Origin: Deltaproteobacteria bacterium
GTDB lineage: Bacteria; Myxococcota_A; Polyangia; JAAYKL01
Assembly (NCBI GenBank): GCA_030621515.1
Contig: JAUXHN010000003.1
Coordinates: forward strand, 1 to 57,255
DNA length: 57,255 bases
Reading direction: 5' to 3'
The notes beneath the pieces were generated by a model. That model worked only from the letters and a program-made list of their open reading frames with translations, ran no database searches and was not told the DNA's origin. Shown one piece after another: positions 1-56,748 of the stretch. How positions within the stretch are numbered: the first letter of the stretch is position 1; each line of letters begins with the position of its first letter. The translations under genes were made by a program, and so were the position numbers.

Positions 1-1668
1 GCGGGTCCTCTTCTCTCATGGTTGGCCCTCCTGGCGATTGCAATAACGACCCTCTGGCCTCTCTTCAAGCGGGGCAGGGTATGGCTTGTTCCCGCAGCCG
101 GAGTTTGTCTTCTACTCGGCTTCCTGGGTCCCGTCTGGGCCGGTTCGGCGATCGCGCACACCCCACAAACCCTTGACAGGATCGACTCCGCAGGCGGGAT
201 GTCTCCGATGATCGGCAAGATCGTCCGCAAGCTGGGAGACGGGGACGGCGACGGCCATGCCCGCTGGATGGGCGGCCTGGATTGCAACGACGAGGATCCG
301 TCCATCCACCCGGGCGCACGGGAGATCCCGAACAACGATGTGGACGAGGACTGTTCCGGCGCGGACCTGGATCTCGATGAGCTTCGCGCCGCCGCCTCGG
401 GCGGTTCCGCCAGGGCCACGGGGGAGGGGATAACCTCCTATAAACGCCCGGATCTACCGGAGGATGTCTCCCTCTTCTTCATCACAGTAGACGCGCTGCG
501 CTGGAACGAGCCGGGGTTCATGGGCTACGAACGCCCGGTGACGCCGAACCTGGACAGGCTCGTGAAAAACGGAACCATCTACGATCGCGCCTACGCGCTG
601 GGATCGTACACCGGCCAGTCCATACCCGCCATGTTGACGGGCAAGTACACCTCGGAGCTATTGAGGAACGACAGGCACGAGTTGCGCGTGTCGGGCAAGG
701 AGAAATTTGCCGCCGAGTACATTTGCGGCGACAACGTTCGCTGCAACGCCATCCTCTCGCACTTCCTGTTCAAGCCACACTACGGCTGGAGCCAGGGATT
801 TCAGGAATGGCTAGTGTCGGGCGCGGCCCCGGAAGGCCCCGGGCATATTGACTCCAAGTACAACTCTCACATGGTGGCGAACAAGGCCGTCAATTGGTTG
901 AAGGACCCAGAGAACACGGCGGGCAGATTTTGGATATGGACCCACTTCATGGATCCTCACAAGGAGTACCTGGACCACGAGGGGTTCAGGCGGTTCGGAA
1001 AAGATCGACGATCTCGCTACGACCAGGAGGTACTCTTCACCGACCACCATGTGGGGCGGATGCTCGACTTCTTCATGACCCTCCCCTCGGCGAAGCGCAC
1101 CATCTTCATTGTGACCTCGGACCACGGGGAGGCGTTCAACGAGCATGGGCGATGGTGTCACGGCAAGGAGCTGTGGGAAGAGATAGTACGTGTGCCCATG
1201 GCCGTGGTCGGGCCCGGAATAGCCAAAAAACGGATCGCGCGGCAGACCAGCCACATCGACCTGTTTCCCACCTTCCTGGATATCTTCAACCAGAAGATCC
1301 CCGACGGTATACACGGAAGAAGTTTGCTGCCCGACTGGGTGGAGGGCCAGGAGATCCCGGAGAAACCCATCGTGGTCGACCAGCCGAAGAACCCGTACTA
1401 CGAGACACGGCGGGTGTTCATCAGGGACGGCTGGAAGCTCCACGATCTCCCCGATACGGGCACCCAACGCCTCTATAAAGTAACCGACGACTACGAGCGA
1501 GGTGATTCCCTGGTTTCGATCGAGCCGGAGAAGTACGCCGAGATCAAGGCGGCGTACGACCTCTTCATGGCCACGGAGTTCAAGCCCGTCGCGACCGTCA
1601 GTTACGGGGCGGATGCGGACGACGTGAACGAGATGCCCCTGCCGCCGGGGGCAGGGAAGAACCGTTGA
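1..1668 (+). CDS. Sulfatase-like/alkaline-phosphatase superfamily hydrolase-transferase with N-terminal TM segments and a MopE-like putative metal-binding motif (5' partial)
   Basis: Frame open from base 1. Motifs ITVDALR, SYTGQSIPAMLTG, HFMDPH, TSDHGE, HG, plus DCNDEDPSIHPGAREIPNNDVDEDC. Confidence 0.85.
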   Translation, partial: AGPLLSWLALLAIAITTLWPLFKRGRVWLVPAAGVCLLLGFLGPVWAGSAIAHTPQTLDRIDSAGGMSPMIGKIVRKLGDGDGDGHARWMGGLDCNDEDPSIHPGAREIPNNDVDEDCSGADLDLDELRAAASGGSARATGEGITSYKRPDLPEDVSLFFITVDALRWNEPGFMGYERPVTPNLDRLVKNGTIYDRAYALGSYTGQSIPAMLTGKYTSELLRNDRHELRVSGKEKFAAEYICGDNVRCNAILSHFLFKPHYGWSQGFQEWLVSGAAPEGPGHIDSKYNSHMVANKAVNWLKDPENTAGRFWIWTHFMDPHKEYLDHEGFRRFGKDRRSRYDQEVLFTDHHVGRMLDFFMTLPSAKRTIFIVTSDHGEAFNEHGRWCHGKELWEEIVRVPMAVVGPGIAKKRIARQTSHIDLFPTFLDIFNQKIPDGIHGRSLLPDWVEGQEIPEKPIVVDQPKNPYYETRRVFIRDGWKLHDLPDTGTQRLYKVTDDYERGDSLVSIEPEKYAEIKAAYDLFMATEFKPVATVSYGADADDVNEMPLPPGAGKNR

Positions 1669-2540: not shown

Positions 2541-4943
2541 TTATTCCGGCACGACGTTGCCCCATTCGGGTTCGGACGACGGGTCCTTGTCCCCGTATTC
2601 CTCGTCGTCTTCAGGCAGCACCCGGATCCCGCTCCGGCTGATGGGCATCCTCGACTCCGGAAGAGGATCTCCCTCGTGGTAGAACCGGAGCTCCTGGCTC
2701 AGCCCCTCAGCAAGCTCCGTCCGGTCTATCCTCCCGCGATCGAACATGGTTTTCATCACCCGGTGCAGGGAGTTCATCTTGCGCTCGGACACCTGGTTGC
2801 GCACGTAGGTTCCGTGACGGGTTATCGGGCTGGGCAGAAGCTTGATCAGGAAGACCGACTCCACGAGGTTGAGTTCGTGGGGCTCCCGCCCGAAGTAGTG
2901 GCTTGCCGCCTCCTTGATTCCGTACAGGGTCGGGCCGAATTCGATGACGTTGAAATACAGCTCCAGGATCTCGTCCTTGGTGAACTGGGACTCCATGTAC
3001 CAGGTGAAGAAGAGCTCCTGCAGTTTTCTGGCCACGGTCCGCTCCCGGTTCATGAAGAGGTTCTTGGCCAGCTGCATGGTGATGGTGCTGGCCCCGTGGC
3101 TCAGGCTGTCCTTCTTGAGGTTGAGCTCGATGGCTCTTTTTATCTCCGGGATGGTAACGCCCCGATGATGTCTGAACTTTCCATCCTCGGTGGTGAGCGC
3201 CGCCTCTACGAGGTACGGCGAGATCATGGAGTACGGCGTCCATCTGTCCGTTCCCGGGCCGCTGATCAGTCGCATGGGTTCTGCGTCAGCGCCATAGGCG
3301 GTGTAAGAGAACGGCCTTCGGAAATCCTGCGGGTTCGGTACGGTGCTGAAGTCCGTGATCTGGCAACGGTTGTCCAGGTTCACCTCCAGCGCAGTTTTTC
3401 CCGGCGCGTTCTCGTCGATGCCCAGTCGCATGTCCAGGGCGAACAACCCCTCCAGCTGTACTCCTTCCAGACGAGGTTTCAGCTGCGAGGGCACCGCCGC
3501 GAGGATCTGTCGGCACGCCGTGGGAGGGACGTTTCCGGAGATATCGAAGGCGAAACGATCGAACATCACGTTGCCCCGCAGGGTAATCCTGGCAAGCCCT
3601 CGCACCGCCATCAACCGCTCCAGATTGAGCTGTCCCTTGTCCTGTTCGTAGCTCGCCTTGAAATCCAGATGGGCATCGAGATCCTCGATGGACTCCGCCG
3701 CCAGTCTCGGATGACTTACCGCTAACCCCGAGATCGAAGCCTGGCCTTCGAATGCCAGCTTCTCCCCGTTGTCCTGTAATTCCACAACTACGGTTCCGTC
3801 GACCGATGCACGCCCCCACTCGATGTGCTCGTTGGGCATGAACATCTCGCCGACGGTCTTCAGCGGCATGTCCGGTATCTCGATGGAGACGCTCGGATCC
3901 TCGTCCCCGGGCCAACTCGCTCCCAACACCCAGCGAGCATCGGTTCCAGGCATCTGCCCGCTCGCCCGGATCGTCAACGCCCTTTTTCGTGTCAGGGAAA
4001 TCTCCCCGGACACGCCGGAGAGCTTCATTTCCAGGTTCTTGTCGCCCGATTTCGAAAGCACGCCGGACGCATCCAAAACGTCTACCTTTACCGAGATGCC
4101 CTCATCATCAACCGCAGGGCCGGACTCCGCCTGCACGTCGCCCTCTTCGATGCTCCCATCGGCCTCGGCCAGGCCTCCTTGCGAATCAACCATGCCGAGC
4201 GCGCGTGCGCTGTCCCTGGCGTCCTTGACGAGTTTTTCCAGATCCTGAGGGTCCACAGGCAGATCGAAGCCCGGCTGGTTCAAGGAAAGAGACACATGTT
4301 CTCTCTCGCTCCTCAACTGCACCTCGCTGGATTCCCCGAAAACAAGATTCCGTCCGAGATGAACCAGGGTGAAATCGTCGGTGTTGACAACAGCTCCTCC
4401 CTCGGTCGAAAACCGTCCGGACAACCCCTCCACGGTTACCGAGAACATTCCATCATCCGCGACGAGACGACCCGAAACGAGGTGGATCTCTGGGATGGAT
4501 CGCGTCGGGCCGGCGCCCTGTGCCTCTGCGTCCATTCCCTTCGAAACTCGTTCGATCAGCTCTCTCCACTCCACGGCCTGCGCTCCGTCCAGGGACTCAC
4601 CCATCCGGATCTCGAGACCGTCCACCCGGATACCGGTGAGATCGAGATCTCCCATCAACAGCGACCCTACCCGCACCCCGACCCCGAGGCTTTCAACCAG
4701 GACGAGCGGTCGTGAACCCTCCTTCGACCGGACCTCCACATTCTCGAAGACCACTGAAGAAAGCGAGATGTCTACGTCCTCGAAGGATATGTGAACGCCG
4801 AGTCGCTCCTCGACCCTGGGAATCAAACCCTCTATGATGCGCTCGTCGGCTCCGGATTGAAGAAACAGAAGCGCCAGGAGGCCCAGAACGAGCACCAATA
4901 TGAAGAGGGCCAGGAGCCAGCGCTTGATACCCATGATCGACAA
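2541..4943 (-). CDS. Large monofunctional peptidoglycan transglycosylase (GT51) with N-terminal TM and AsmA-like region
   Basis: C-terminal GT51 motifs EDGKFRHHRG, GASTITMQLAKNLF, RKLQE, KDEILELYFN. No transpeptidase domain. Confidence 0.88.
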   Translation of the reverse strand: MSIMGIKRWLLALFILVLVLGLLALLFLQSGADERIIEGLIPRVEERLGVHISFEDVDISLSSVVFENVEVRSKEGSRPLVLVESLGVGVRVGSLLMGDLDLTGIRVDGLEIRMGESLDGAQAVEWRELIERVSKGMDAEAQGAGPTRSIPEIHLVSGRLVADDGMFSVTVEGLSGRFSTEGGAVVNTDDFTLVHLGRNLVFGESSEVQLRSEREHVSLSLNQPGFDLPVDPQDLEKLVKDARDSARALGMVDSQGGLAEADGSIEEGDVQAESGPAVDDEGISVKVDVLDASGVLSKSGDKNLEMKLSGVSGEISLTRKRALTIRASGQMPGTDARWVLGASWPGDEDPSVSIEIPDMPLKTVGEMFMPNEHIEWGRASVDGTVVVELQDNGEKLAFEGQASISGLAVSHPRLAAESIEDLDAHLDFKASYEQDKGQLNLERLMAVRGLARITLRGNVMFDRFAFDISGNVPPTACRQILAAVPSQLKPRLEGVQLEGLFALDMRLGIDENAPGKTALEVNLDNRCQITDFSTVPNPQDFRRPFSYTAYGADAEPMRLISGPGTDRWTPYSMISPYLVEAALTTEDGKFRHHRGVTIPEIKRAIELNLKKDSLSHGASTITMQLAKNLFMNRERTVARKLQELFFTWYMESQFTKDEILELYFNVIEFGPTLYGIKEAASHYFGREPHELNLVESVFLIKLLPSPITRHGTYVRNQVSERKMNSLHRVMKTMFDRGRIDRTELAEGLSQELRFYHEGDPLPESRMPISRSGIRVLPEDDEEYGDKDPSSEPEWGNVVPE

Positions 4944-5068: not shown

Positions 5069-5557
5069 ATGGGACGCTTGATCAGGCAAACCGAAATGGA
5101 GACAATGGCCGGAGCGCTGGTGGCGCAGCTGGCCGATTTCGATCCGCAAGCGGTGGTCTACATCCACTCCCAGGGTCATTTTTCGGGCGAGGTTCTAGCC
5201 CGCTCTTATGGCGCGGATCTTTTCAAGCTGGACCTTCGATACCCCTTCAGCCGTGTACTCGCTTCGATCCCGAGACCGTTCCTCATTCCCCTGTGGCCAC
5301 TGAAGGAGTTGATGTACAAAGTTTCGGCTCCTTCACTGAAGGGAGCCGCGCAACTGCCAAGCCCGGGTGTTCGCATCACCCTGGTGGACGACTCGGCGAG
5401 CAGTGGACGAACTATCCGAATGGCCCTGAGCATTCTCGAGGACAACGGTCACAAGCGCAAAGACATTCGCGTTGCAGTGCTTCGATGCGGCGGCAGGGCA
5501 CAGGAACTGGTGGATCATTACGTCACCGGGAATCCGGTGATATTCAGTTTGAGATAG
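5069..5557 (+). CDS. Phosphoribosyltransferase (type I PRT) family protein
   Basis: PRPP-binding loop ITLVDDSASSGRT. Start may be 5096. Confidence 0.75.
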   Translation: MGRLIRQTEMETMAGALVAQLADFDPQAVVYIHSQGHFSGEVLARSYGADLFKLDLRYPFSRVLASIPRPFLIPLWPLKELMYKVSAPSLKGAAQLPSPGVRITLVDDSASSGRTIRMALSILEDNGHKRKDIRVAVLRCGGRAQELVDHYVTGNPVIFSLR

Positions 5558-5568
5558 GCTTCAAGGTG

Positions 5569-6048
5569 TTATCTGGTCTGGGCATGCCTTACGAATCTTC
5601 TCGCCACGTAGCAACGCAGTTGCTCTCTGGCGTCGTGCCCCATATCACAGAATGCCACGCCCATCCCCGCGCTTCCCTGGCCGTCTCCCACGTCGGCCCG
5701 TACGACCTTTCCCTTGACGGAAAATGGACGGCGGCTGGAGGGCAGGGAAAGCCGAAGGAGCAGCTCCTCGCCCTCGAATAACAGGAGATCCGAGTGCAGG
5801 TAAACTCCCACGGCGCTCAGGTCGAAACAGTCGAACGCCATGGCATCCCCATGTTCGTCCACCAGTTCGATTGACACGTCCTCTATGGATCTTCGGGAAC
5901 TCTTCCTGCGATTCGTCCGACGGGAAACCCCCGCAGTATCCACTACACATTGCTTTACGGCATGTTCGACGCGTCGCGGATTACCCATGAAATCATTTAT
6001 TCCATAACCGGGACCCGGGGTCAAAATCTTTCTATTATACTTCGCCAA
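5569..6048 (-). CDS. PilZ-domain protein (c-di-GMP receptor)
   Basis: RxxxR (RRKSSRR) and DxSxxG (DLSAVG) motifs followed by VKGKVVR...GMGVAF. True start may be downstream. Confidence 0.8.
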   Translation of the reverse strand: MAKYNRKILTPGPGYGINDFMGNPRRVEHAVKQCVVDTAGVSRRTNRRKSSRRSIEDVSIELVDEHGDAMAFDCFDLSAVGVYLHSDLLLFEGEELLLRLSLPSSRRPFSVKGKVVRADVGDGQGSAGMGVAFCDMGHDAREQLRCYVARRFVRHAQTR

Positions 6049-6069: not shown

Positions 6070-7071
6070 TCACGGAAAAACCAGGATACGTTCCTCCCCG
6101 TGCACCGCGATCAATTTGTCCACGTGGGCGATCAATGCGTCTCTTCTGGCTAGCAAGAGCGCGATCTCCGATTCTTTTAGCAGCGCTCGACCCGGGCGAG
6201 TGGGCCCCCACTTCACGGTATCCATCACCGCTCTTGCTTCAAGCCTGCGCAACTTGGAAATCAGGGCGACGGAGAATCTCTGGCAAGACGAAAGCAGATC
6301 GTCCATTCTCATGCGTTGTCGATCGGACCACGTCGAGAAAGATCCGTTATTGTCGATGAGCACAAGGGTGGATCCGGAGCTGTCGGCGAACAGGTTCCCG
6401 CCCGAGAACCGATCCCAGTTTCCGGCCACGTAATCGAGCGTTACCATTGACGACGCGGGCGCAACGAGCGGTTCTTCGCCGGGCGTGGGACCGTCAATGG
6501 AGAGAAAGAAGTCAAGCTTCACGCGACCTTTGCGACCATCGAGCCCGGACACGACGATATCGTCCATCCAGGTGATCATCGCGCCGGGAATAGCCCCGTT
6601 GTCTCCCGTGCGCGCCTCTTTCCTCAGGGACGAAGCCACATCAGGGAAGTGTTTCTCCAGGTGTCCTGTGAGCCTGGGAAGCGGGATCTCGCGCATGGTC
6701 GAGGGGGGCACCCTCTCCACCCCGAGCAATCTTGCGAGGCGAAAGTAGGCAACCTCGAAACGGGCGGTGCCGTTGCCACGGCGCATGGGCTTGAAGACCG
6801 CGACATCGCCTTGAGTCAGCTTCACCTTCAACGACAAGGAGCGCATGGAGATCGGGCGCACACCGACTATTTTGCCGCTGACGAGATTCTCCGTCATGTC
6901 TCCGGGCAAGCTCGCGGACCGGCGAGGTTCCTCCACATTGGCGCGAGGGATCACATCCTTCTTCGCCACTTGCGTCACTCGTCGATCTTCCTCGCCCGCA
7001 TGCTCTCCTGTGCCCGAGCAGCTCAACGACAGGACTCCGAACAAGAACGCCGGTATGGGTATTCTGGTCAT
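6070..7071 (-). CDS. Exported Fam20C/Four-jointed-like atypical kinase, lipoprotein
   Basis: Lipobox LSLSC. Motifs AVFKPM, EVAYFRLARLLG.RVPP, DYVAGNWDR, LIDNNGSF, CQRFS. Confidence 0.75.
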   Translation of the reverse strand: MTRIPIPAFLFGVLSLSCSGTGEHAGEEDRRVTQVAKKDVIPRANVEEPRRSASLPGDMTENLVSGKIVGVRPISMRSLSLKVKLTQGDVAVFKPMRRGNGTARFEVAYFRLARLLGVERVPPSTMREIPLPRLTGHLEKHFPDVASSLRKEARTGDNGAIPGAMITWMDDIVVSGLDGRKGRVKLDFFLSIDGPTPGEEPLVAPASSMVTLDYVAGNWDRFSGGNLFADSSGSTLVLIDNNGSFSTWSDRQRMRMDDLLSSCQRFSVALISKLRRLEARAVMDTVKWGPTRPGRALLKESEIALLLARRDALIAHVDKLIAVHGEERILVFP

Positions 7072-7201
7072 TCACTCCCTCTTGTCTGAGATATACTAAC
7101 CGAATGCAGTCTTTACAAAACTAAAACGGTGGTCCTTGACAGCGGGCAGGAGCACCCTTTAAGGTGCTTGCCTCCTTTCGACGAGGTGGAGGGATAAGAA
7201 A

Positions 7202-15878: not shown

Positions 15879-16361
15879 ATGGTCGATCCGCAGATGGTGA
15901 TGTACGAGGAGGAGTTCAACCAGATACAGGTGGTTTGCGACAAGCTCGTACGCGATGCCAATGCTCTTGTGGTTTTCATAGTAGATAAAAACGGGCAGTT
16001 GATTTCCACGTCAGGGGAATACGAGCATCTGGACACAACGTCCCTGGCTTCCCTGACCGCAGGTAACATTGCTGCAACCGGTGGAATGGCGAAGCTCCTC
16101 AAGGAGAACGAGTTCGCCACCCAGTTTCATGAGGGTGAGCATCAGAACATTCACATTCAGATAGTCGGACAGCGCGTCATTCTGGTAGTCATTTTCGACG
16201 AACGTTCCTCTCTGGGCCTGGTAAGGTTGAGGGTTCGCAAGGCAACTGCGGAACTCGACAGGATTTTCGGAATTCTGTTGAAAAAGGTTCAGGATCCCGG
16301 CACGCCTTCACCGTTCGCCGAGATCACCGATGATGACATCGATAACTTGTTCAACGATTAG
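15879..16361 (+). CDS. mglB: Gliding-motility polarity GAP MglB (roadblock/LC7)
   Basis: MYEEEF..I..VC..L..DANA.VVF.VDKNGQLI...DTTSLASLTAGN.AA.GG, ending ITDDDIDNLF. Confidence 0.97.
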   Translation: MVDPQMVMYEEEFNQIQVVCDKLVRDANALVVFIVDKNGQLISTSGEYEHLDTTSLASLTAGNIAATGGMAKLLKENEFATQFHEGEHQNIHIQIVGQRVILVVIFDERSSLGLVRLRVRKATAELDRIFGILLKKVQDPGTPSPFAEITDDDIDNLFND

Positions 16362-16378
16362 GAAAAGGGCCCCAATAG

Positions 16379-16966
16379 ATGTCGTTCATCAATTACTCAT
16401 CGCGTGAAATCAACTGCAAGATCGTTTATTACGGTCCCGGGTTGTGCGGCAAGACGACCAATCTCCAGTACATTTATAACCGTACAAACCCCGATGCCAA
16501 GGGCAAGATGATATCACTTGCCACCGAAACCGAGAGGACATTGTTTTTCGACTTTCTGCCGCTCTCTCTGGGAGAGATTCGCGGATTCAAAACAAGGTTC
16601 CATCTCTACACTGTTCCCGGGCAGGTTTTTTACGATGCTTCGAGAAAGCTCATCCTCAAAGGGGTGGACGGTGTCATTTTCGTGGCCGACTCTCAGATTG
16701 ACCGCATGGAAGCCAACATCGAGTCCATGGAAAACCTGCGGTACAACTTGCAGGAGCAGGGTTACGAGCTTGATAATCTTCCATTTGTGGTCCAGTATAA
16801 CAAGCGCGATCTTCCAAATGTGGCTTCCGTGGACGAGCTTCGCGAGTTGCTCAACATCACCATAGTCCCCGATTTCGAGGCCGTCTCTACCACCGGCCAA
16901 GGGGTCTTCGATACCCTCAAGGCGGTCGCCAAACTGGTGCTCACGGATCTCAAACGCGGCAGCTGA
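16379..16966 (+). CDS. mglA: Ras-like GTPase MglA
   Basis: MSFINYSSREINCKIVYYGPGLCGKTTN, TVPGQ, NKRD. Confidence 0.98.
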   Translation: MSFINYSSREINCKIVYYGPGLCGKTTNLQYIYNRTNPDAKGKMISLATETERTLFFDFLPLSLGEIRGFKTRFHLYTVPGQVFYDASRKLILKGVDGVIFVADSQIDRMEANIESMENLRYNLQEQGYELDNLPFVVQYNKRDLPNVASVDELRELLNITIVPDFEAVSTTGQGVFDTLKAVAKLVLTDLKRGS

Positions 16967-37238: not shown

Positions 37239-38666
37239 ATGAGAGAAAACAGACATCCTTCGACTCTCCTGATCCTCCTGATAACGGGAGTAGCTCTTTT
37301 CGCCTGCGACCCGGACGGTTCCACCGGGGACGCCGGCATGGACGGGGGTTCGGATACTTCGGCGGACGGGGGAGACACGGACACGGGGACGCAACCCGAT
37401 GCGGGCCACGACGCCTCCGATGACTCCGGCCAGACGGACACCGACACGGACACCACGATCTTCGACGGAGACGGGTCGTGTCAGATGGTTGAGCCCGCGT
37501 TCGTGAATACTGTTGTGTCCGACAATACCTCTGGCGAGCCCAACGATCTCTTTGACTACAACTGCACCGCCCTGGATGAGAGCGGGTCGGATCTGGCCTA
37601 CCAGTTCGATCACACGGGTTCCGTAGCCATCAGGCTGACCGCGACATTAACGAACGCGATCTGCGATCTCGACCTGTTCCTTCTGGGTGAAGATTGTTCA
37701 AGGAATTCATGTGTTACCTACTCGGCAGGCACGGGAGACGAATCAGCCTGCGCGATCGTCCAACCGTCCTCGACTCTCTTCGTTGTCGTTGACGGGTACA
37801 TGAGCGCCGCATGCTCGTTTGATCTCTTGCTCACCGAAGAGATGGTGGAGGTGAACTGCACGGGGAACATCGACGACGACGGAGACGGCCTGACGGATTG
37901 TGAAGATGACGACTGCGTGTTCGAGGCCGATTGCATTCAGTCGTGCGCGCCCGACGAGACGATCTTCTGCGGACACATGGGCTCTCACACTACCTCGGGA
38001 TTTACCAACTCCATCGAGATTTATTCCTTGTACTCCACATCCCTCAACGGTCCGGAGAAGGCCTTCGAATTCACAGCGAGCGCAACCGGAACCACCCTCG
38101 AAGCTACACTTTCCAACGAGACTCCCGGGCAGGAGCTCCTCGTTCTTGCCGATTTCTGCTCGTCCGACGCTGTCGCCCATGCGGGCTCGTCCACGGTGGA
38201 GTTTGCGCCGGATCCGGCGATCTCCTACTTCTTTGTGGTAGATGGACCGTCCGGCTCCGCTGGACCGTTCGAATTCCAGCTCACCTGCCGTGAAACCGAC
38301 TGCGATGATGGCCTCGACAACGACGACGACGGCCTCACGGACTGCGCCGACGACGACTGCGAGATCGACCTGTCATGTGTCACCACCTGCGACCTGCTCA
38401 CCGCAGACGCCGGTTGTGCATTCTTCGACGGCGGCGTTTCTTCCTGCTATCTCCTCGATCCGTATCCCCCCATGGGCTTCTGTCATCCGGTCGGCGACGC
38501 CTCGGTGGGAGACCCGTGCGCCGTGCCCCACGACTGCATCGCGGGCGCCATATGCACACCGGCCGACATCTGCCTCATGGCCTGTGATCTGGTGGACGAT
38601 GTGCCGGGTTGCGCTTCGGGAACCTGCTCATCACTCGGAATCGATCCCCTCGGCGTCTGTTGGTAA
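37239..38666 (+). CDS. Cys-rich acidic lipoprotein with PPC-like domains and DDDGDGLTDC repeats
   Basis: LFAC lipobox, DT linker, two xFVVVDG domains, two C...DDDxDGLTDCxDDDC motifs. Confidence 0.85.
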   Translation: MRENRHPSTLLILLITGVALFACDPDGSTGDAGMDGGSDTSADGGDTDTGTQPDAGHDASDDSGQTDTDTDTTIFDGDGSCQMVEPAFVNTVVSDNTSGEPNDLFDYNCTALDESGSDLAYQFDHTGSVAIRLTATLTNAICDLDLFLLGEDCSRNSCVTYSAGTGDESACAIVQPSSTLFVVVDGYMSAACSFDLLLTEEMVEVNCTGNIDDDGDGLTDCEDDDCVFEADCIQSCAPDETIFCGHMGSHTTSGFTNSIEIYSLYSTSLNGPEKAFEFTASATGTTLEATLSNETPGQELLVLADFCSSDAVAHAGSSTVEFAPDPAISYFFVVDGPSGSAGPFEFQLTCRETDCDDGLDNDDDGLTDCADDDCEIDLSCVTTCDLLTADAGCAFFDGGVSSCYLLDPYPPMGFCHPVGDASVGDPCAVPHDCIAGAICTPADICLMACDLVDDVPGCASGTCSSLGIDPLGVCW

Positions 38667-39806
38667 AGCCTGTTTCTTGCCATGCAACTGCATATGACCT
38701 GACTGTATTCCCTCGCTAGCCAGGGCGGCCAGCGCAGCGAGATTCGACGCCAACCCCACAGACACGGCCACTTGCGCCAGCTCGGACGCGCACTCGACAC
38801 CCACGAGATCCAGGCACGCGACCGCCCCGGGGTTTGCCGTGGATGCGCCACCTACCAGGCCGACAGTCATGGGCATCTCCACCTCTCCGACCAGATCGGA
38901 TCCCTCTATCCGCCAGGTCGCAAGCGGGGCGTAGCTTTTACCTCTCGCCGCGAAAGCGTGAGCCCCCGCCTCCACCGCGCGCCAGTCGTTTCCGCATGCG
39001 AGCAGGAATGCGTCTATTCCGTTGAAGATCCCCTTGTTGTGCGTGGCCGCCCTGTACGGATCCGAACACGCGAAATCCGAGGCGGCAGATACGCCCACGG
39101 CCACATCCTTACCACTGAACCCCTCTCGATCGAGAGCCTCGAACGGGATGGCGCACCTCGCGCGAGCGAGGCGGTGATCTGCCAGGTTCGTGAGTATCCG
39201 CAGGCCGGCGCGTCCGCCCGCGATCTCGGCCAGGCGATGAGACACGGCCTCGGTCATGGTGTTGACCATATTGGCGCCCATGGCATCACGGCAATCAATG
39301 TGCAGGTGAACGACCAGCCGCCCGGGCCCGCCAACATCGCAACGGACCGCCATTGTGCGCATCCCGCCGCCCAGTGACACAAGCTCCGGCTGGACGGCGT
39401 CGGCTATCCGTACAATTTCATCGACGGAGTCTTCCAGACGCTCTCTTGCCCCGGGCAATGGATCGAGGATCTCCACCTGGCCGGCCATGATGGGCGGGTC
39501 GGCCTGCGCCAGGAACCCCGTGCCGGCGCGTGCCATCCTTGCGCCGTTCGAGGCCGCAGCTATCACAGAAGGTTCCTCCACCGCCATGGGCACCAGTAAT
39601 TCCACCCCGTTGACCATGAAATTGGTTGCTATCCCCAGTGGCAGGCAAAACACTCCCACCGCGTTCTCGATCATCGCGTCGGCCTTCTCAATAGTGAGGT
39701 CAGCGCCAAAACCGGGATTTTTGATCCGTCGTGATATTTCTTCCAGCCTCTTTGCAGGGCTTCTCTTGTGGAACCCCGGCAGCCTTGATCTTCCCTTCGA
39801 TTTCAT
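38631..39806 (-). CDS. mvaA: Hydroxymethylglutaryl-CoA reductase, class II
   Basis: MIENAVG, PMAVEEPSV, DAMGANMVN, RAATHNKGI.NG, GNDWRA.EAG, GIQ.GHM.LH. ATG 39806 overlaps the upstream stop. Confidence 0.93.
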   Translation of the reverse strand: MKSKGRSRLPGFHKRSPAKRLEEISRRIKNPGFGADLTIEKADAMIENAVGVFCLPLGIATNFMVNGVELLVPMAVEEPSVIAAASNGARMARAGTGFLAQADPPIMAGQVEILDPLPGARERLEDSVDEIVRIADAVQPELVSLGGGMRTMAVRCDVGGPGRLVVHLHIDCRDAMGANMVNTMTEAVSHRLAEIAGGRAGLRILTNLADHRLARARCAIPFEALDREGFSGKDVAVGVSAASDFACSDPYRAATHNKGIFNGIDAFLLACGNDWRAVEAGAHAFAARGKSYAPLATWRIEGSDLVGEVEMPMTVGLVGGASTANPGAVACLDLVGVECASELAQVAVSVGLASNLAALAALASEGIQSGHMQLHGKKQALPTDAEGIDSE

Positions 39807-40654
39807 GAATCGATTTCCCTCTCGAGCTTGTCGAATTTCTTTGCCACTTCGAACACACCATCGTGGTCGAGATCGAATTCCTCCCTGATTTTCACTCCGT
39901 GAATATAGAATGCCTTCTTGTCCGGCTTTCCGCTCCCATCCAGCGACCAGTGCTGCTCCACCACCTGACCGAATTTGCCAAACGACCACGAATCCGGCCG
40001 TCCGTCATAATCGAGATCGTATCTGCCGTTCGTGAAGTGACCGAGTTCGAAGAATTCCCAGGCGTCCACCGAACCATCGAAATTCAGGTCGCTCTCAACT
40101 CTCTCCGTCTGGCCGAACTCTCCACAATATATCCACTCGTCAATCCTTGTGTCGAAATTGGTGTCGTTATCAACCCTGTTCCTGTATCCGTACTTGCCGT
40201 ACTTGACCCACTCATCCACTTTCTGATCGAAGTTCTTGTCGCTCCTGGACCCTACCTGCACTCCCATAACGAAGATGGTCCACTCGTCGACCTTGTCGTC
40301 GAAATTCAGATCGTTCTTGATCTCGCTCGCCCGGCCCATCTCGTCGAACTGGACCCATTCGTCCGGCTTGCCATCGAAGTTGGTATCTTTCCTCGATCGC
40401 ACGGGGACACCGTCCTCGAACTCGGTCCAGTCGTCCCTGCGGCCGTCGAAATTGTTATCTCTCTCCCATTTGAGAAACTTACCGTCCTTGAAGATGATCC
40501 ACTCGTCCACTTCACCGTCGGCGTTCGAATCACTCTCCTGCCAACCGTCGGGCGACTCCTCTTCGTCAGAAACGACGACAAGGGTGATTGAAATACCCGC
40601 GACCGCTCCCAGCATCGTCGTGGCAAGGGCAACCGGCAAGATAGGACTACGCAT
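39803..40654 (-). CDS. Membrane-anchored protein with ~10 DxNFDGxxDxW repeats
   Basis: N-terminal TM followed by ~23-25-aa tandem units. Confidence 0.8.
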   Translation of the reverse strand: MRSPILPVALATTMLGAVAGISITLVVVSDEEESPDGWQESDSNADGEVDEWIIFKDGKFLKWERDNNFDGRRDDWTEFEDGVPVRSRKDTNFDGKPDEWVQFDEMGRASEIKNDLNFDDKVDEWTIFVMGVQVGSRSDKNFDQKVDEWVKYGKYGYRNRVDNDTNFDTRIDEWIYCGEFGQTERVESDLNFDGSVDAWEFFELGHFTNGRYDLDYDGRPDSWSFGKFGQVVEQHWSLDGSGKPDKKAFYIHGVKIREEFDLDHDGVFEVAKKFDKLEREIDS

Positions 40655-51162: not shown

Positions 51163-51810
51163 TCAGAAGACCCGTTCGGGGACAAAGAGGATGTCACCTG
51201 GACGAAGAATGAAGTTGGACGCCTTTCCCTGTCCGATGGCCTCCACCGGCACCGTGAACTGCTTCTCTTCGCCGTTCACGATCCTGGTGACGGTGGTATC
51301 GTTGGCACGGGCCATTGACGTGAACCCGCCCGACAGGGAGATAGCCTCCACCACGCTCATACCTTCCTGGTACGGGAAGGTGCCGGGCTTTTTGACTTGC
51401 CCGAAGATCGACACTTTCTTGCTGTTGTACTCCTTGACCAGAACCGACACGTGAGGCTTTTTGAGAAAGTTTCCTTCGATGAGCAACTGCTCCAGAAGCT
51501 TCGTCACCTCGGTGGGGGTCAATCTGCCTACTACAACGGTTCCCAGGAGCGGATACTCGATGGTGCCGTCGGAAGCCACCTTGAATGTGTCGGTCAACTC
51601 CTTCTCGTCGTAAACACGGATATCGAACACGTCGCCCGGTCCGAGGGTGGTGTCCATGGAATCGCCGCTGTCAATGGGTTTGGGTGTAACGGGCTGCGTG
51701 GAGCCGCAAGCCGCCGCGAGGATCCCGGCGATGACGATGGCTATTGCAACAAGTCCAAAATTTGTCGGGAGGTAAATTGCGGGAAGATCCGAGGCCGTGC
51801 CGTTGACCAT
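51163..51810 (-). CDS. Short OPX polysaccharide export protein (Poly_export + one SLBB, no C-terminal helix)
   Basis: LGPGDVFDIRV, DGTIEYPLLG, GQVKKPG, L.PGDILFVPERVF. Lipobox AAAC. Confidence 0.9.
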   Translation of the reverse strand: MVNGTASDLPAIYLPTNFGLVAIAIVIAGILAAACGSTQPVTPKPIDSGDSMDTTLGPGDVFDIRVYDEKELTDTFKVASDGTIEYPLLGTVVVGRLTPTEVTKLLEQLLIEGNFLKKPHVSVLVKEYNSKKVSIFGQVKKPGTFPYQEGMSVVEAISLSGGFTSMARANDTTVTRIVNGEEKQFTVPVEAIGQGKASNFILRPGDILFVPERVF

Positions 51811-55604: not shown

Positions 55605-56180
55605 CTAATTCGCTTTGCCGCCTTCTGCGGCGACAAACTTAAATTTTTCGAACTCCGCCTGACCGGCCGTATATAAAACCTCTGTTACCAAACGATAACT
55701 GGTCCCCGAATGTGCCACAACAAGTGCCTTACCCTCAAACGGCTGATTTGTCCTGGCCGCAATCATTTTGAGGTGCTGCACCTTTTCCTTCAGTGAATCG
55801 AAAAGCGGGTTGATGAGCAGCCCCTCCTGTCCATCCCGCTTCATGCTTTCGTCCACGGCGCCGTTCCTGAGATCGGCGACCTTGATATCCTGGACCATGA
55901 TGGCCTTTGTGGATATTGCGATGACTATCGCGTCCTCGAGCGGCTGCACGGACGTTGATCTCGGCAGTTTCAGGTCATCGGACTCACGAATCTGCACGGG
56001 ATCGGAGCCGAAACTCTTGAGAAGGAAGCACAGGATGATCGTGAAGGCGTCCATCAGTGAGTTGATGAGCAGTTTCGGCCGCGGAGTAGACCGCATGCGT
56101 CGCTTGTCTTTTTTGGCCTGGCGTTTTGCCGCCCAAATTGCGTCTACCTGACTGGCATTTCCCGGCGTGTTAGGATCCAT
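55605..56180 (-). CDS. ExbD/TolR family protein (AglS-like)
   Basis: INSLMDAFTIILCFLLKSF, LP.S, Y..V..VLYTAGQAEF. Confidence 0.88.
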   Translation of the reverse strand: MDPNTPGNASQVDAIWAAKRQAKKDKRRMRSTPRPKLLINSLMDAFTIILCFLLKSFGSDPVQIRESDDLKLPRSTSVQPLEDAIVIAISTKAIMVQDIKVADLRNGAVDESMKRDGQEGLLINPLFDSLKEKVQHLKMIAARTNQPFEGKALVVAHSGTSYRLVTEVLYTAGQAEFEKFKFVAAEGGKAN

Positions 56181-56238
56181 TCGATACCCTCCGTAGAAAT
56201 GATCGGTTTTCTACTCAGCCGCCATCTCGAAAAAACTG

Positions 56239-56748
56239 TTACACCACACCGCGCGTCAGCGTCACCACATCGAAGAGCGGTTCTTCCAGAGTGCCGCGCG
56301 AGTAGTCCATCGCCTTTATAAGCACTTCGAACTGAATATCGTCCTCCGCGCCCAAAATGATATTTCTCTCTTCCCTGTGATCGGCCTTCAGCTCCTTGAG
56401 CTTTCGCGCAAACTCATCGAAATCCCAATCGTCGTCCTTCTTGGGAATGTCCGGACCTGACGATGCGGTCTCGGTTGCCTGGGACATCCAGGACATCCGA
56501 TGCTTGGGGTTGACCTTGAAATGGAACCCCTGGTCGGTGATCATGACCGTCAGGTTGAGCGCCTCGTTCTGATCGGGCGGCTGTTGTGCGGGAGCGCGCG
56601 AGATCTTGGGGGCGTTCACCGTCAGGGTCATGAACCGAACGAATACCGCGCCGTACAGGAGGAGAGGAATCAGCATGCACACCAGGTTCATGATCGGGAT
56701 CAGCGGATCACCCTCATATGGTTCTTCTTTTCGCCTTTTCTTTGCCAT
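56239..56748 (-). CDS. ExbD/TolR family protein (AglQ-like position)
   Basis: LIPIMNLVCMLIPLLL TM, AEDDIQFEVLIKAMD, LF..V.L. Confidence 0.85.
   Translation of the reverse strand: MAKKRRKEEPYEGDPLIPIMNLVCMLIPLLLYGAVFVRFMTLTVNAPKISRAPAQQPPDQNEALNLTVMITDQGFHFKVNPKHRMSWMSQATETASSGPDIPKKDDDWDFDEFARKLKELKADHREERNIILGAEDDIQFEVLIKAMDYSRGTLEEPLFDVVTLTRGVV

Follow-up and report, generated by a model that had tools for sequence, protein, structure and literature searches.

Introduction

The closest described systems to the gene reported here are the metazoan Fam20 proteins, which comprise the Golgi casein kinase Fam20C, the xylosylkinase Fam20B and the pseudokinase Fam20A (PDB 5yh3, 5yh0, 4kqa, 5xom and 5wrr). 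Fam20-type kinases are regarded as an invention of the animal or eukaryotic secretory pathway. We analysed a stretch of 57,255 nucleotides from a Deltaproteobacteria bacterium (contig JAUXHN010000003.1, positions 1 to 57,255; hereafter the window), in which a first-pass annotation made from the DNA letters alone had pointed to a gene for an exported lipoprotein kinase resembling Fam20C and Four-jointed. The product of this gene is clearly homologous to Fam20 and, with its minimal core, comes nearest to a 'bare' Fam20 of bacteria. Judging from sequence and a predicted model, we favour with modest confidence the reading that the gene encodes an exported, probably lipid-anchored and catalytically competent Fam20-type kinase.

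A survey of the Legionella kinome describes the FAM20 cluster as 'eukaryotic- or Metazoa-specific' (PMC9758233), and a review gives only CotH as Fam20C-like in bacteria (PMC12189002). A 2026 preprint has FAM20B on its list of at most five contributions that Myxococcota may have made to the endomembrane functions of eukaryotes, and cautions that the signal is not unequivocal. No characterised bacterial Fam20 homologue was found in the literature searched, where many matches to 'FAM20' were the name of a Neisseria strain. The annotation had presented the locus as the best candidate in the window for an undescribed system; 'undescribed' holds for its function, but some relatives are already tagged with Pfam PF06702, and the preprint lists FAM20B as possibly derived from Myxococcota.

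Results

Sequence homology to Fam20

The open reading frame at 6070-7071 of the reverse strand runs through 333 codons without an internal stop and encodes a protein of 333 amino acids. A purine-rich AGAGGGAG lies 3 nt upstream of the start codon, and the N-terminus is kept in relatives with 77-84% identity. All of the motifs listed by the first-pass annotation are present in the translation in the order given: the putative signal peptide with lipobox-like end MTRIPIPAFLFGVLSLSC (residues 1-18), AVFKPM (91-96), EVAYFRLARLLGVERVPP (106-123), GAMITW (163-168), LDYVAGNWDR (212-221), LIDNNGSF (238-245), CQRFS (263-267) and LARRD...HG (307-325). The Fam20C motifs that it had named for comparison, ALFKPM, EIAAFHLDRILDFRRVPP, FDFLMGNMDRHH and LDNGRGF, were located in the human FAM20C chain (5yh3_C) at matching places of the alignment.

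Both a family profile and the predicted fold show that this resemblance is real homology. A search of the PDB with the single sequence (phmmer) gave no significant match (E about 1), and all three chains returned were Fam20 proteins. We then used an alignment of 36 sequences (A1), drawn from 55 homologues returned by a word-indexed protein search, which were named 'hypothetical protein' wherever the source gave a name. The A1 profile matched six Fam20 chains in the PDB with E-values of 4.7e-12 to 1.4e-4, namely two constructs of FAM20A (4.7e-12 and 6e-12), human FAM20C (1.8e-11), zebrafish Fam20C (3.4e-8), C. elegans Fam20 (9.9e-6) and the xylosylkinase Fam20B (1.4e-4). The next chains were unrelated (E >= 0.055). 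The lead of FAM20A over FAM20C amounts to only 1.9 bits. The alignments span both lobes and reach the last residues of both proteins; the hinge GAMITW faces GALILW of Fam20, and the likeness continues through the C-terminal helix.

Matches to the Pfam family PF06702 (Golgi casein kinase, C-terminal domain) were found in six of the 11 relatives scanned, with scores of 16.8-26.3 bits that all lie under the gathering cut-off of 26.8 bits. These matches cover profile positions 80-217 of 218, C-terminal helix included, and a precomputed PF06702 tag is already attached to some relatives. One relative matched the Pfam family FAM198 with an E-value of 0.0035.

Predicted fold

An AlphaFold2 model built on A1 has a per-residue confidence (pLDDT) above 90 at residues 58-333 and below 50 at residues 19-57. 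The comparison of such a model with known folds had been proposed by the first-pass annotation, for which a non-kinase fold as best match would have spoken against its reading; the best match was a kinase fold, and specifically that of Fam20. The 15 best PDB entries listed by Foldseek (ranks 1-27) are all Fam20 proteins, with E-values of 3e-11 to 3e-8, template-modelling scores (normalised to the query) of about 0.6 and FAM20A on top; PI4KIIalpha follows after Fam20 (E 3e-6). We also used VIA, an independent structural aligner, in an all-against-representatives search, in which the alignments to Fam20 chains cover model residues 51/52-333. Residues 52-333 aligned with zebrafish Fam20C (Z 22.0, 265 residues, root-mean-square deviation (rmsd) 3.0) and with hydra Fam20 (Z 22.0, 267 residues, rmsd 3.2, 21% identity), and C. 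elegans Fam20 was close behind (Z 21.1, 265 residues, rmsd 3.1). Lower scores were obtained for PI4KIIalpha (Z 16.0), CtkA (Z 13.9), actin-fragmin kinase (Z 12.7), CotH (Z 12.2, 11% identity), and HipA and HipT (Z 12.0 and 11.0). Identity to the Fam20 chains is 15-21% in the Foldseek and VIA alignments.

Catalytic residues

Residues K94, P95, E106, G163, W168, D213, D220, R221, S223, G224, G225, N226, D240 and R309 are invariant in A1 (36/36). The description of the protein as an intact kinase is borne out at the level of sequence, since the Lys/Glu/Asp/Asn/Asp set (K94, E106, D220, N226 and D240) is among them. K94 aligns with the Lys of the Fam20 FKPM motif, and E106 aligns with the Glu of Fam20 ...NAEIAAFHLDRIL, which is the canonical alphaC Glu (E218 in C. 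elegans Fam20). In the pairwise alignment with hydra Fam20, D220 falls on D299, described as the catalytic base (PMC5865150). D240 falls on the Asp of LDN in FAM20A, FAM20C and hydra Fam20, and D213 corresponds to the first Asp of FDFLMGNMDR, the site of human D451, whose mutation to Asn 'disrupts a salt bridge in the catalytic segment' (PMC7948968). The stretch DRFSGGN is the bacterial family's own catalytic-loop signature.

A different pattern was seen in the Polyangiales-type sister subfamily (alignment A2, 32 sequences; examples at L020:5869-6825 and L028:5863-6825). The position of the beta3 Lys is occupied by Arg in 16/32, nearly all sequences have the Lys of an SFKPVGH motif close to beta1, and the positions of E106, D220, N226 and D240 remain invariant. 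This pattern could reflect a relocation of the catalytic Lys as in WNK kinases or a partial drift towards a pseudokinase.

Putative export signal and possible lipobox

Residues 1-18 consist of a short positively charged start, a hydrophobic stretch of 13 residues and Cys18. They are followed by a disordered and charged segment (residues 19-57), and the protein has no second hydrophobic segment. The proposal that the protein is exported is supported as far as sequence goes, a hydrophobic N-terminus ending in Cys and then about 40 disordered residues being present. For the lipobox the outcome was divided: S-L-S-C18 matches a loose pattern ([LVI][ASTVI][GAS]C ending the signal peptide, simplified after PROSITE PS51257) but misses the strict one (L-x-[GAS]-C). 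The loose pattern is present in 26 and the strict pattern in 13 of the 36 A1 sequences. We consider that the kinase is probably lipid-anchored at Cys18.

A hydrophobic window at the N-terminus (12 residues with a mean Kyte-Doolittle hydropathy >= 1.8) is present in 58 of the 63 homologues that were called from genomic loci, and a lipobox-like Cys in 24 of them. Polyangiales-type N-termini, inspected by eye, end in ...SSVASAE, a Sec-type AxA site, and no conserved twin-arginine motif was visible by eye in the homologue N-termini that were printed. Because the type of signal varies between subfamilies and the presence of a signal does not, the N-termini argue for a conserved extracytoplasmic location of the kinase.

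Family size and range

The kinase belongs to a large, unstudied, myxobacterial family named only 'hypothetical'. When 1.84 billion representatives were scanned in full with HMMER, 2901 proteins were found with E <= 1e-3, 1066 with E <= 1e-10 and 378 with E <= 1e-30; for the best 120 of 281 matches of a profile search, every name given was 'hypothetical protein'. Matches occur in at least 114 of the 401 Myxococcota genomes sampled, and many of these have 3-5 matches each. The gene is single-copy in the host genome (4.64 Mb, 346 contigs, 96% complete), and the other sampled genome of the host's own family has no kinase match. Scanning a single genome of each species with a pattern gave 98 relatives; the best 80 of these loci nearly all come from metagenome-assembled genomes labelled Myxococcota, Polyangia or 'Deltaproteobacteria', and three are labelled only 'uncultured bacterium'. 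In the ESM-Atlas, the closest clusters (with 1069, 116 and 129 members) contain bacterial proteins, mostly from Myxococcota, with PF06702 carried by about 10-11% of the members of the first two. Fused longer forms were sought among 8000 candidates, none of which scored E <= 1e-5 with A1, and this is weak evidence. Among the 20 sequencing runs listed for the kinase sequence there was no RNA run; the DNA runs were sediment-type metagenomes, mostly with small shares.

Another class of Myxococcota encodes proteins of 814-1206 amino acids that match the C-lobe of the kinase profile only (E about 1e-18 to 1e-24; L091:789-4409, L092:4010-7309 on the reverse strand and L093:1162-3606). No Pfam domain was found at E <= 0.01 in any of these three.

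Neighbouring genes

The gene neighbourhood was compared over 80 related loci and the window by clustering of open reading frames and tblastn. The 81 loci are heavily related, mostly from one order, so that their count overstates their independence. The sole consistent partner is a mini histidine kinase of about 235-243 amino acids that consists of HisKA and HATPase_c domains only, with neither a sensor nor a membrane segment. It is present in 64 of the 81 loci, in 62 of them within about 470 nt, and occurs in three arrangements: 59 genes follow the kinase gene on its own strand at a distance of up to about 470 nt, 3 are divergent and adjacent, and 2 are 1.7 and 3.0 kb away. In most Polyangiales-type loci the gap between the two genes is 30 nt. 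The available downstream sequence is shorter than 700 nt in four of the 17 loci that lack the histidine kinase gene. The outer flanks differ by clade: loci of Polyangiales have acyl-CoA dehydrogenase and RarA-like genes, those of the window's clade have phosphoribosyltransferase and transglycosylase genes, and across clades with differing flanks only the pair of kinase and histidine kinase persists. A complex prediction for the kinase domain and mini histidine kinase of locus L003, the closest relative with this partner, scored 0.00 in two runs that had no controls, and speaks neither for nor against an interaction.

A PilZ gene directly follows the kinase gene in 7/81 loci, and in all four loci that have both partners it is placed between the kinase and histidine kinase genes. 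The mini histidine kinase is cleanly missing from the window and from L002, a relative with 82% identity; there, the stops of the PilZ and phosphoribosyltransferase genes are 12 nt apart (5557-5569 in the window). The relative L003 (83% identical) keeps it (L003:8684-9415). No terminator-like site was found between the kinase and PilZ genes, and the two are probably co-transcribed; scans for promoters and terminators around the kinase gene gave results at chance level only. An AsmA-like/transglycosylase gene is found 1.1-3 kb downstream of the kinase gene in 8/81 loci, all in the window's clade. Upstream of and divergent from the kinase gene, the window has a DksA-type gene, a GAF histidine kinase gene and an SPFH/zinc-ribbon gene. 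In L003 and L002, the two relatives closest to the window, a gene for a metallo-beta-lactamase-fold protein of 399 amino acids (L003:7010-8209, reverse strand), which is not in the window, is located between the kinase and PilZ genes.

The features of the kinase gene and further genes of the window are collected in Table 1. Among the latter, the Roadblock/LC7 and GTPase genes form an MglB/MglA-like polarity pair typical of myxobacteria.

Table 1. Features of the kinase gene and other genes in the window.
Feature	Position	Strand	Basis
Fam20-like kinase precursor gene, stop included	6070..7071	-	Open reading frame list and translation; profile and fold matches to Fam20
Shine-Dalgarno-like AGGGAG (7075-7080) and 3-nt spacer before ATG at 7071	7072..7080	-	Read from sequence
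Residues 1-18, putative signal peptide with a lipobox-like ending (...VLSLS-C18)	7018..7071	-	N-terminal hydrophobic window; fit to the loose lipobox pattern
Disordered charged tether, residues 19-57	6901..7017	-	pLDDT <50; length and sequence variable in A1
Kinase domain, residues 58-333, minimal Fam20-type core and C-terminal helix	6073..6900	-	pLDDT >90; VIA alignments
N-lobe catalytic pair, AVFKPM (K94) to E106	6754..6801	-	Both in 36/36; aligned to Fam20
Catalytic loop LDYVAGNWDRFSGGN (D213, D220, N226)	6394..6438	-	Invariant residues; D220 at hydra D299 position
Predicted metal-binding, DFG-equivalent LIDNNGSF (D240)	6337..6360	-	Invariant; aligns with Fam20 LDN Asp
PilZ-domain gene, 21 nt downstream of kinase gene	5569..6048	-	Pfam PilZ E 7e-12
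Phosphoribosyltransferase-like gene, convergent, after PilZ gene	5069-5557		
800-amino acid protein, AsmA/DUF748/YhdP-like N-terminus and peptidoglycan transglycosylase domain	2541-4943	-	
Sulfatase with N-terminal MopE-type putative metal-binding motif	22-1668	+	Pfam Cu-binding_MopE E 1e-8
Roadblock/LC7 gene, then small Arf/Ras-like GTPase gene	15879-16963	+	
HMG-CoA reductase gene, mevalonate pathway	38634-39989	-	
Wza-like polysaccharide export protein, Poly_export and SLBB	51166-51810	-	
Two ExbD genes	55608-56748		

A possible source of ATP outside the cytoplasm

An exported kinase would need ATP beyond the inner membrane, a problem that is real, though not fatal. For E. coli, ATP has been described at a micromolar steady-state level in the periplasm and also inside outer-membrane vesicles, by an export route that is unknown (PMC7432876). 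The host genome encodes a transporter of the major facilitator superfamily of TLC/NTT type, the ATP/ADP-translocase family (L090:1126-2451, contig C247), which scored 57-71 bits against a family cut-off of 21 bits. Members of this transporter family occur in 159 of the 401 Myxococcota genomes sampled and in 0/14 control genomes. By a hand count of the genomes listed from the same class, a TLC match is present in 44/58 genomes with the kinase and 6/20 without it, a split confounded by kinship, as one genus supplies 18 genomes. The distribution of this carrier follows that of the kinase loosely, and we treat it as a lead only.

Findings at odds with an exported, active Fam20-type kinase

Several findings weigh against the reading that we favour, and they are gathered here. 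By itself, the 333-amino acid protein has FAM198 as its sole match in Pfam (E 0.24, residues 63-129) and no match in NCBIfam; PF06702 is absent from its matches even at E <= 10. The lipobox of the window protein is atypical in having Ser at position -3, and fails the strict pattern. The partners that are conserved, histidine kinase and PilZ, are cytoplasmic and fit oddly with an exported enzyme. The mini histidine kinase itself is missing from the host, where the best match in the genome has 23% identity. The TLC/NTT gene adjoins genes for a trypsin-like protease and an FHA protein and is unlinked to the kinase gene, and the split in its distribution is contradicted by two kinase-bearing families (0/3 genomes with TLC in f9, 5/34 in f20).

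The catalytic domain also departs from Fam20 at places tied to activity and specificity. In Fam20 proteins, an additional acidic residue of the Kbeta3-Kalpha3 loop (E213 in C. elegans Fam20, D152 in hydra) pairs with the Lys, and the pseudokinase Fam20A has Gln at this position and is hence inactive (PMC5865150). The loop of about 14 residues that carries this acid is a gap in the bacterial family in the profile alignments; position 100 is Asp in 15, Asn in 13 and Ser in 5 of 36 sequences, and positions 100-101 are N/G in the window protein. Because the loop acid of Fam20 is absent and the invariant E106 is the canonical alphaC Glu, the N-lobe of the bacterial protein looks more like that of an ordinary kinase than the Fam20 N-lobe does. 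The position of the sugar-pocket His of Fam20B (hydra H301), which follows the catalytic Asp-Arg, is taken by Phe222 in 34/36, and that of the Lys (Fam20B, hydra K321) or Arg (Fam20C) after the DN motif by Gly243 in 22/36. With both selectivity residues replaced, the substrate class is not transferable from Fam20B or Fam20C. The kinase domain contains 0, 1 or 2 Cys residues in 10, 20 and 6 of the 36 sequences, none of them invariant, and the Fam20 disulfide set is therefore missing. It is also about 100 residues shorter than the Fam20 chains, which implies that Fam20 insertions are missing as well. In the strict sense the kinase is thus outside Fam20, falling below the Pfam threshold and having neither the ion-pair acid nor the insertions and disulfides.

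Alternative readings

As to the substrate, we lean, weakly, towards a protein over a glycan or lipid, and place Ser/Thr of a protein somewhat short of an even chance. A protein of the same fold and location might instead place phosphate on the hydroxyl of a sugar or lipid in an envelope polymer (exopolysaccharide, lipopolysaccharide/lipid or a peptidoglycan precursor), for which Fam20B acting on xylose and PI4K acting on an inositol lipid are model cases; we regard a glycan or lipid hydroxyl as a possible but doubtful target. Hydra Fam20, a xylosylkinase, shares the top structural score (Z 22.0, 21% identity), the next after Fam20 is PI4KIIalpha (Z 16), the AsmA-like/transglycosylase gene follows in 8/81 loci, and the preprint puts Myxococcota near FAM20B. 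Also missing from the family are the three 'clash' features that keep a disaccharide out of Fam20C, namely its FYF loop, its CxYYC motif and the Arg that follows DN (PMC5865150). Yet His301 and Lys321, with which Fam20B binds sugar, are the very residues replaced by Phe222 and Gly243, no glycosyltransferase or polysaccharide gene is conserved beside the kinase across the 81 loci, and the other near structural neighbours (CtkA, actin-fragmin kinase, CotH and HipA) are protein kinases. That the protein is no phosphotransferase at all, and serves as a nucleotide-binding scaffold or regulator like Fam20A or carries out another chemistry such as AMPylation, we consider improbable. The periplasm is poor in ATP, the pseudokinase FAM20A tops both the sequence and the Foldseek matches, half of the Polyangiales-type sister sequences (16/32) have Arg for the beta3 Lys, and kinase-fold proteins with other activities exist (SidJ and SelO). 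The order of FAM20A over FAM20C, however, rests on 1.9 bits, and the window's subfamily keeps all canonical catalytic residues, K94 and E106 included, in 36/36 sequences, whereas FAM20A is inactive through the Gln that replaces an acidic residue (PMC5865150).

If the hydrophobic segment were uncleaved or did not export the protein, the kinase could work on the cytoplasmic face with PilZ and, in relatives, the mini histidine kinase; this would suit its cytoplasmic signalling neighbours, the atypical lipobox and a compartment where ATP is freely at hand. We think it very unlikely, as a hydrophobic segment with Cys or AxA and a long charged linker is the standard layout for export and is kept across subfamilies, and there is no second hydrophobic segment. 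Membership of the HipA or PI3/PI4-kinase group instead of the Fam20 group is suggested by matches of several relatives to HipA_2 (E 4e-6 to 1e-3) and PI3_PI4_kinase (E 2e-3 to 0.1), and by the Asn six residues past the catalytic Asp, which resembles the DxHxxN catalytic loop typical of HipA and PI3/PI4 kinases. These matches reach at most 26.6 bits for HipA_2 (cut-off 27) and 23.8 bits for PI3_PI4_kinase (cut-off 27.1) and cover the catalytic loop only, and the window protein itself matches neither family in Pfam. The PF06702 matches of relatives, on the other hand, run through the C-terminal helix (80-217 of 218), the A1 profile finds no chains but those of Fam20 at E < 0.05 (PI4KIIalpha, E 0.71), and the VIA scores fall from Z 22 for Fam20 to 16 for PI4KIIalpha and 12 for HipA, which makes this assignment barely credible.

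Discussion

An exported and catalytically competent kinase of Fam20 type would work as follows. The precursor would be exported by Sec and lipidated at Cys18, from which the kinase domain would hang in the envelope on a flexible tether of roughly 40 residues, at the periplasmic face or the surface. The domain of about 275 residues would bind ATP and a divalent metal, with K94 paired to E106 in the canonical kinase manner, N226 and D240 holding the metal and D220 as the catalytic base, and would move phosphate to an envelope or secreted substrate. In relatives, the kinase gene forms a module with the gene of a cytoplasmic histidine kinase that has no sensor, in some cases with a PilZ gene in between; of these partners the host genome keeps PilZ only.

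A broader proposal goes further, and we put it forward as speculation that is rather unlikely to hold in full. Myxobacteria may phosphorylate with ATP outside the inner membrane through an anchored or secreted Fam20-type kinase that belongs to a module of histidine kinase and PilZ protein, the latter binding cyclic di-GMP; the bare-core family, with its canonical Lys-Glu pairing, might be ancient and diversified, and be the stock from which Fam20, Four-jointed and FAM198 come. A bacterial branch that is large and conserved, probably exported and has its catalytic residues intact bears on the view that these kinases are a eukaryotic invention. It would offer a tractable system in which to ask if regulated phosphorylation of the envelope exists, and would make it necessary to ask how ATP gets to that compartment. 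Given the possible link between Myxococcota and FAM20B, it would also make the origin of eukaryotic extracellular phosphorylation testable. The minimal core may in addition be a simpler structure on which to model how Fam20 enzymes catalyse their reaction.

Comparison with known systems

The more remote relatives share the kinase-like fold and a similar catalytic loop. These are PI4K type II alpha, HipA/HipT, H. pylori CtkA and actin-fragmin kinase, which have lower similarity, no significant profile match and no match to the Fam20-type C-terminal helix; CtkA is secreted, and its PDB entry is titled 'proinflammatory kinase'. FAM198/GASK1, the sole Pfam match of the window protein, is not significant (E 0.24). 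Bacillus CotH (PDB 5jda) is another bacterial atypical kinase; its target, the spore coat, is of an extracytoplasmic type, as that of the kinase described here would be. CotH is far more distant than Fam20 (Z 12.2, 11% identity, no profile match). It has been described as Fam20C-like and as having no DFG-type metal motif (PMC12189002), whereas the kinase of the window keeps D240.

With Fam20, the bacterial kinase shares the fold of the whole domain (Z 21-22 over 265-267 residues, rmsd 3.0-3.2), the catalytic Lys, Asp and Asp, and the motifs FKPM, E(I/V)AA(F/Y)xLxRLLG..RVPP, GAxIxW, DxxxGNxDR and LDN..F, along with an Arg-rich C-terminal helix ending in HG. Fam20 proteins enter a secretory route through an N-terminal signal, as the bacterial kinase would through its putative one. 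The bacterial protein differs in being probably lipid-anchored and in its smaller core (about 275 residues, against 350-420 in Fam20), in which the Kbeta3-Kalpha3 insertion of about 14 residues with the ion-pair acid and FYF motif is absent, as are conserved disulfides. Its catalytic loop reads DRFSGGN where Fam20 has DRHH(Y/F)E, and the residues that select the substrate in Fam20, His and Lys/Arg, are Phe and Gly in the bacterial kinase.

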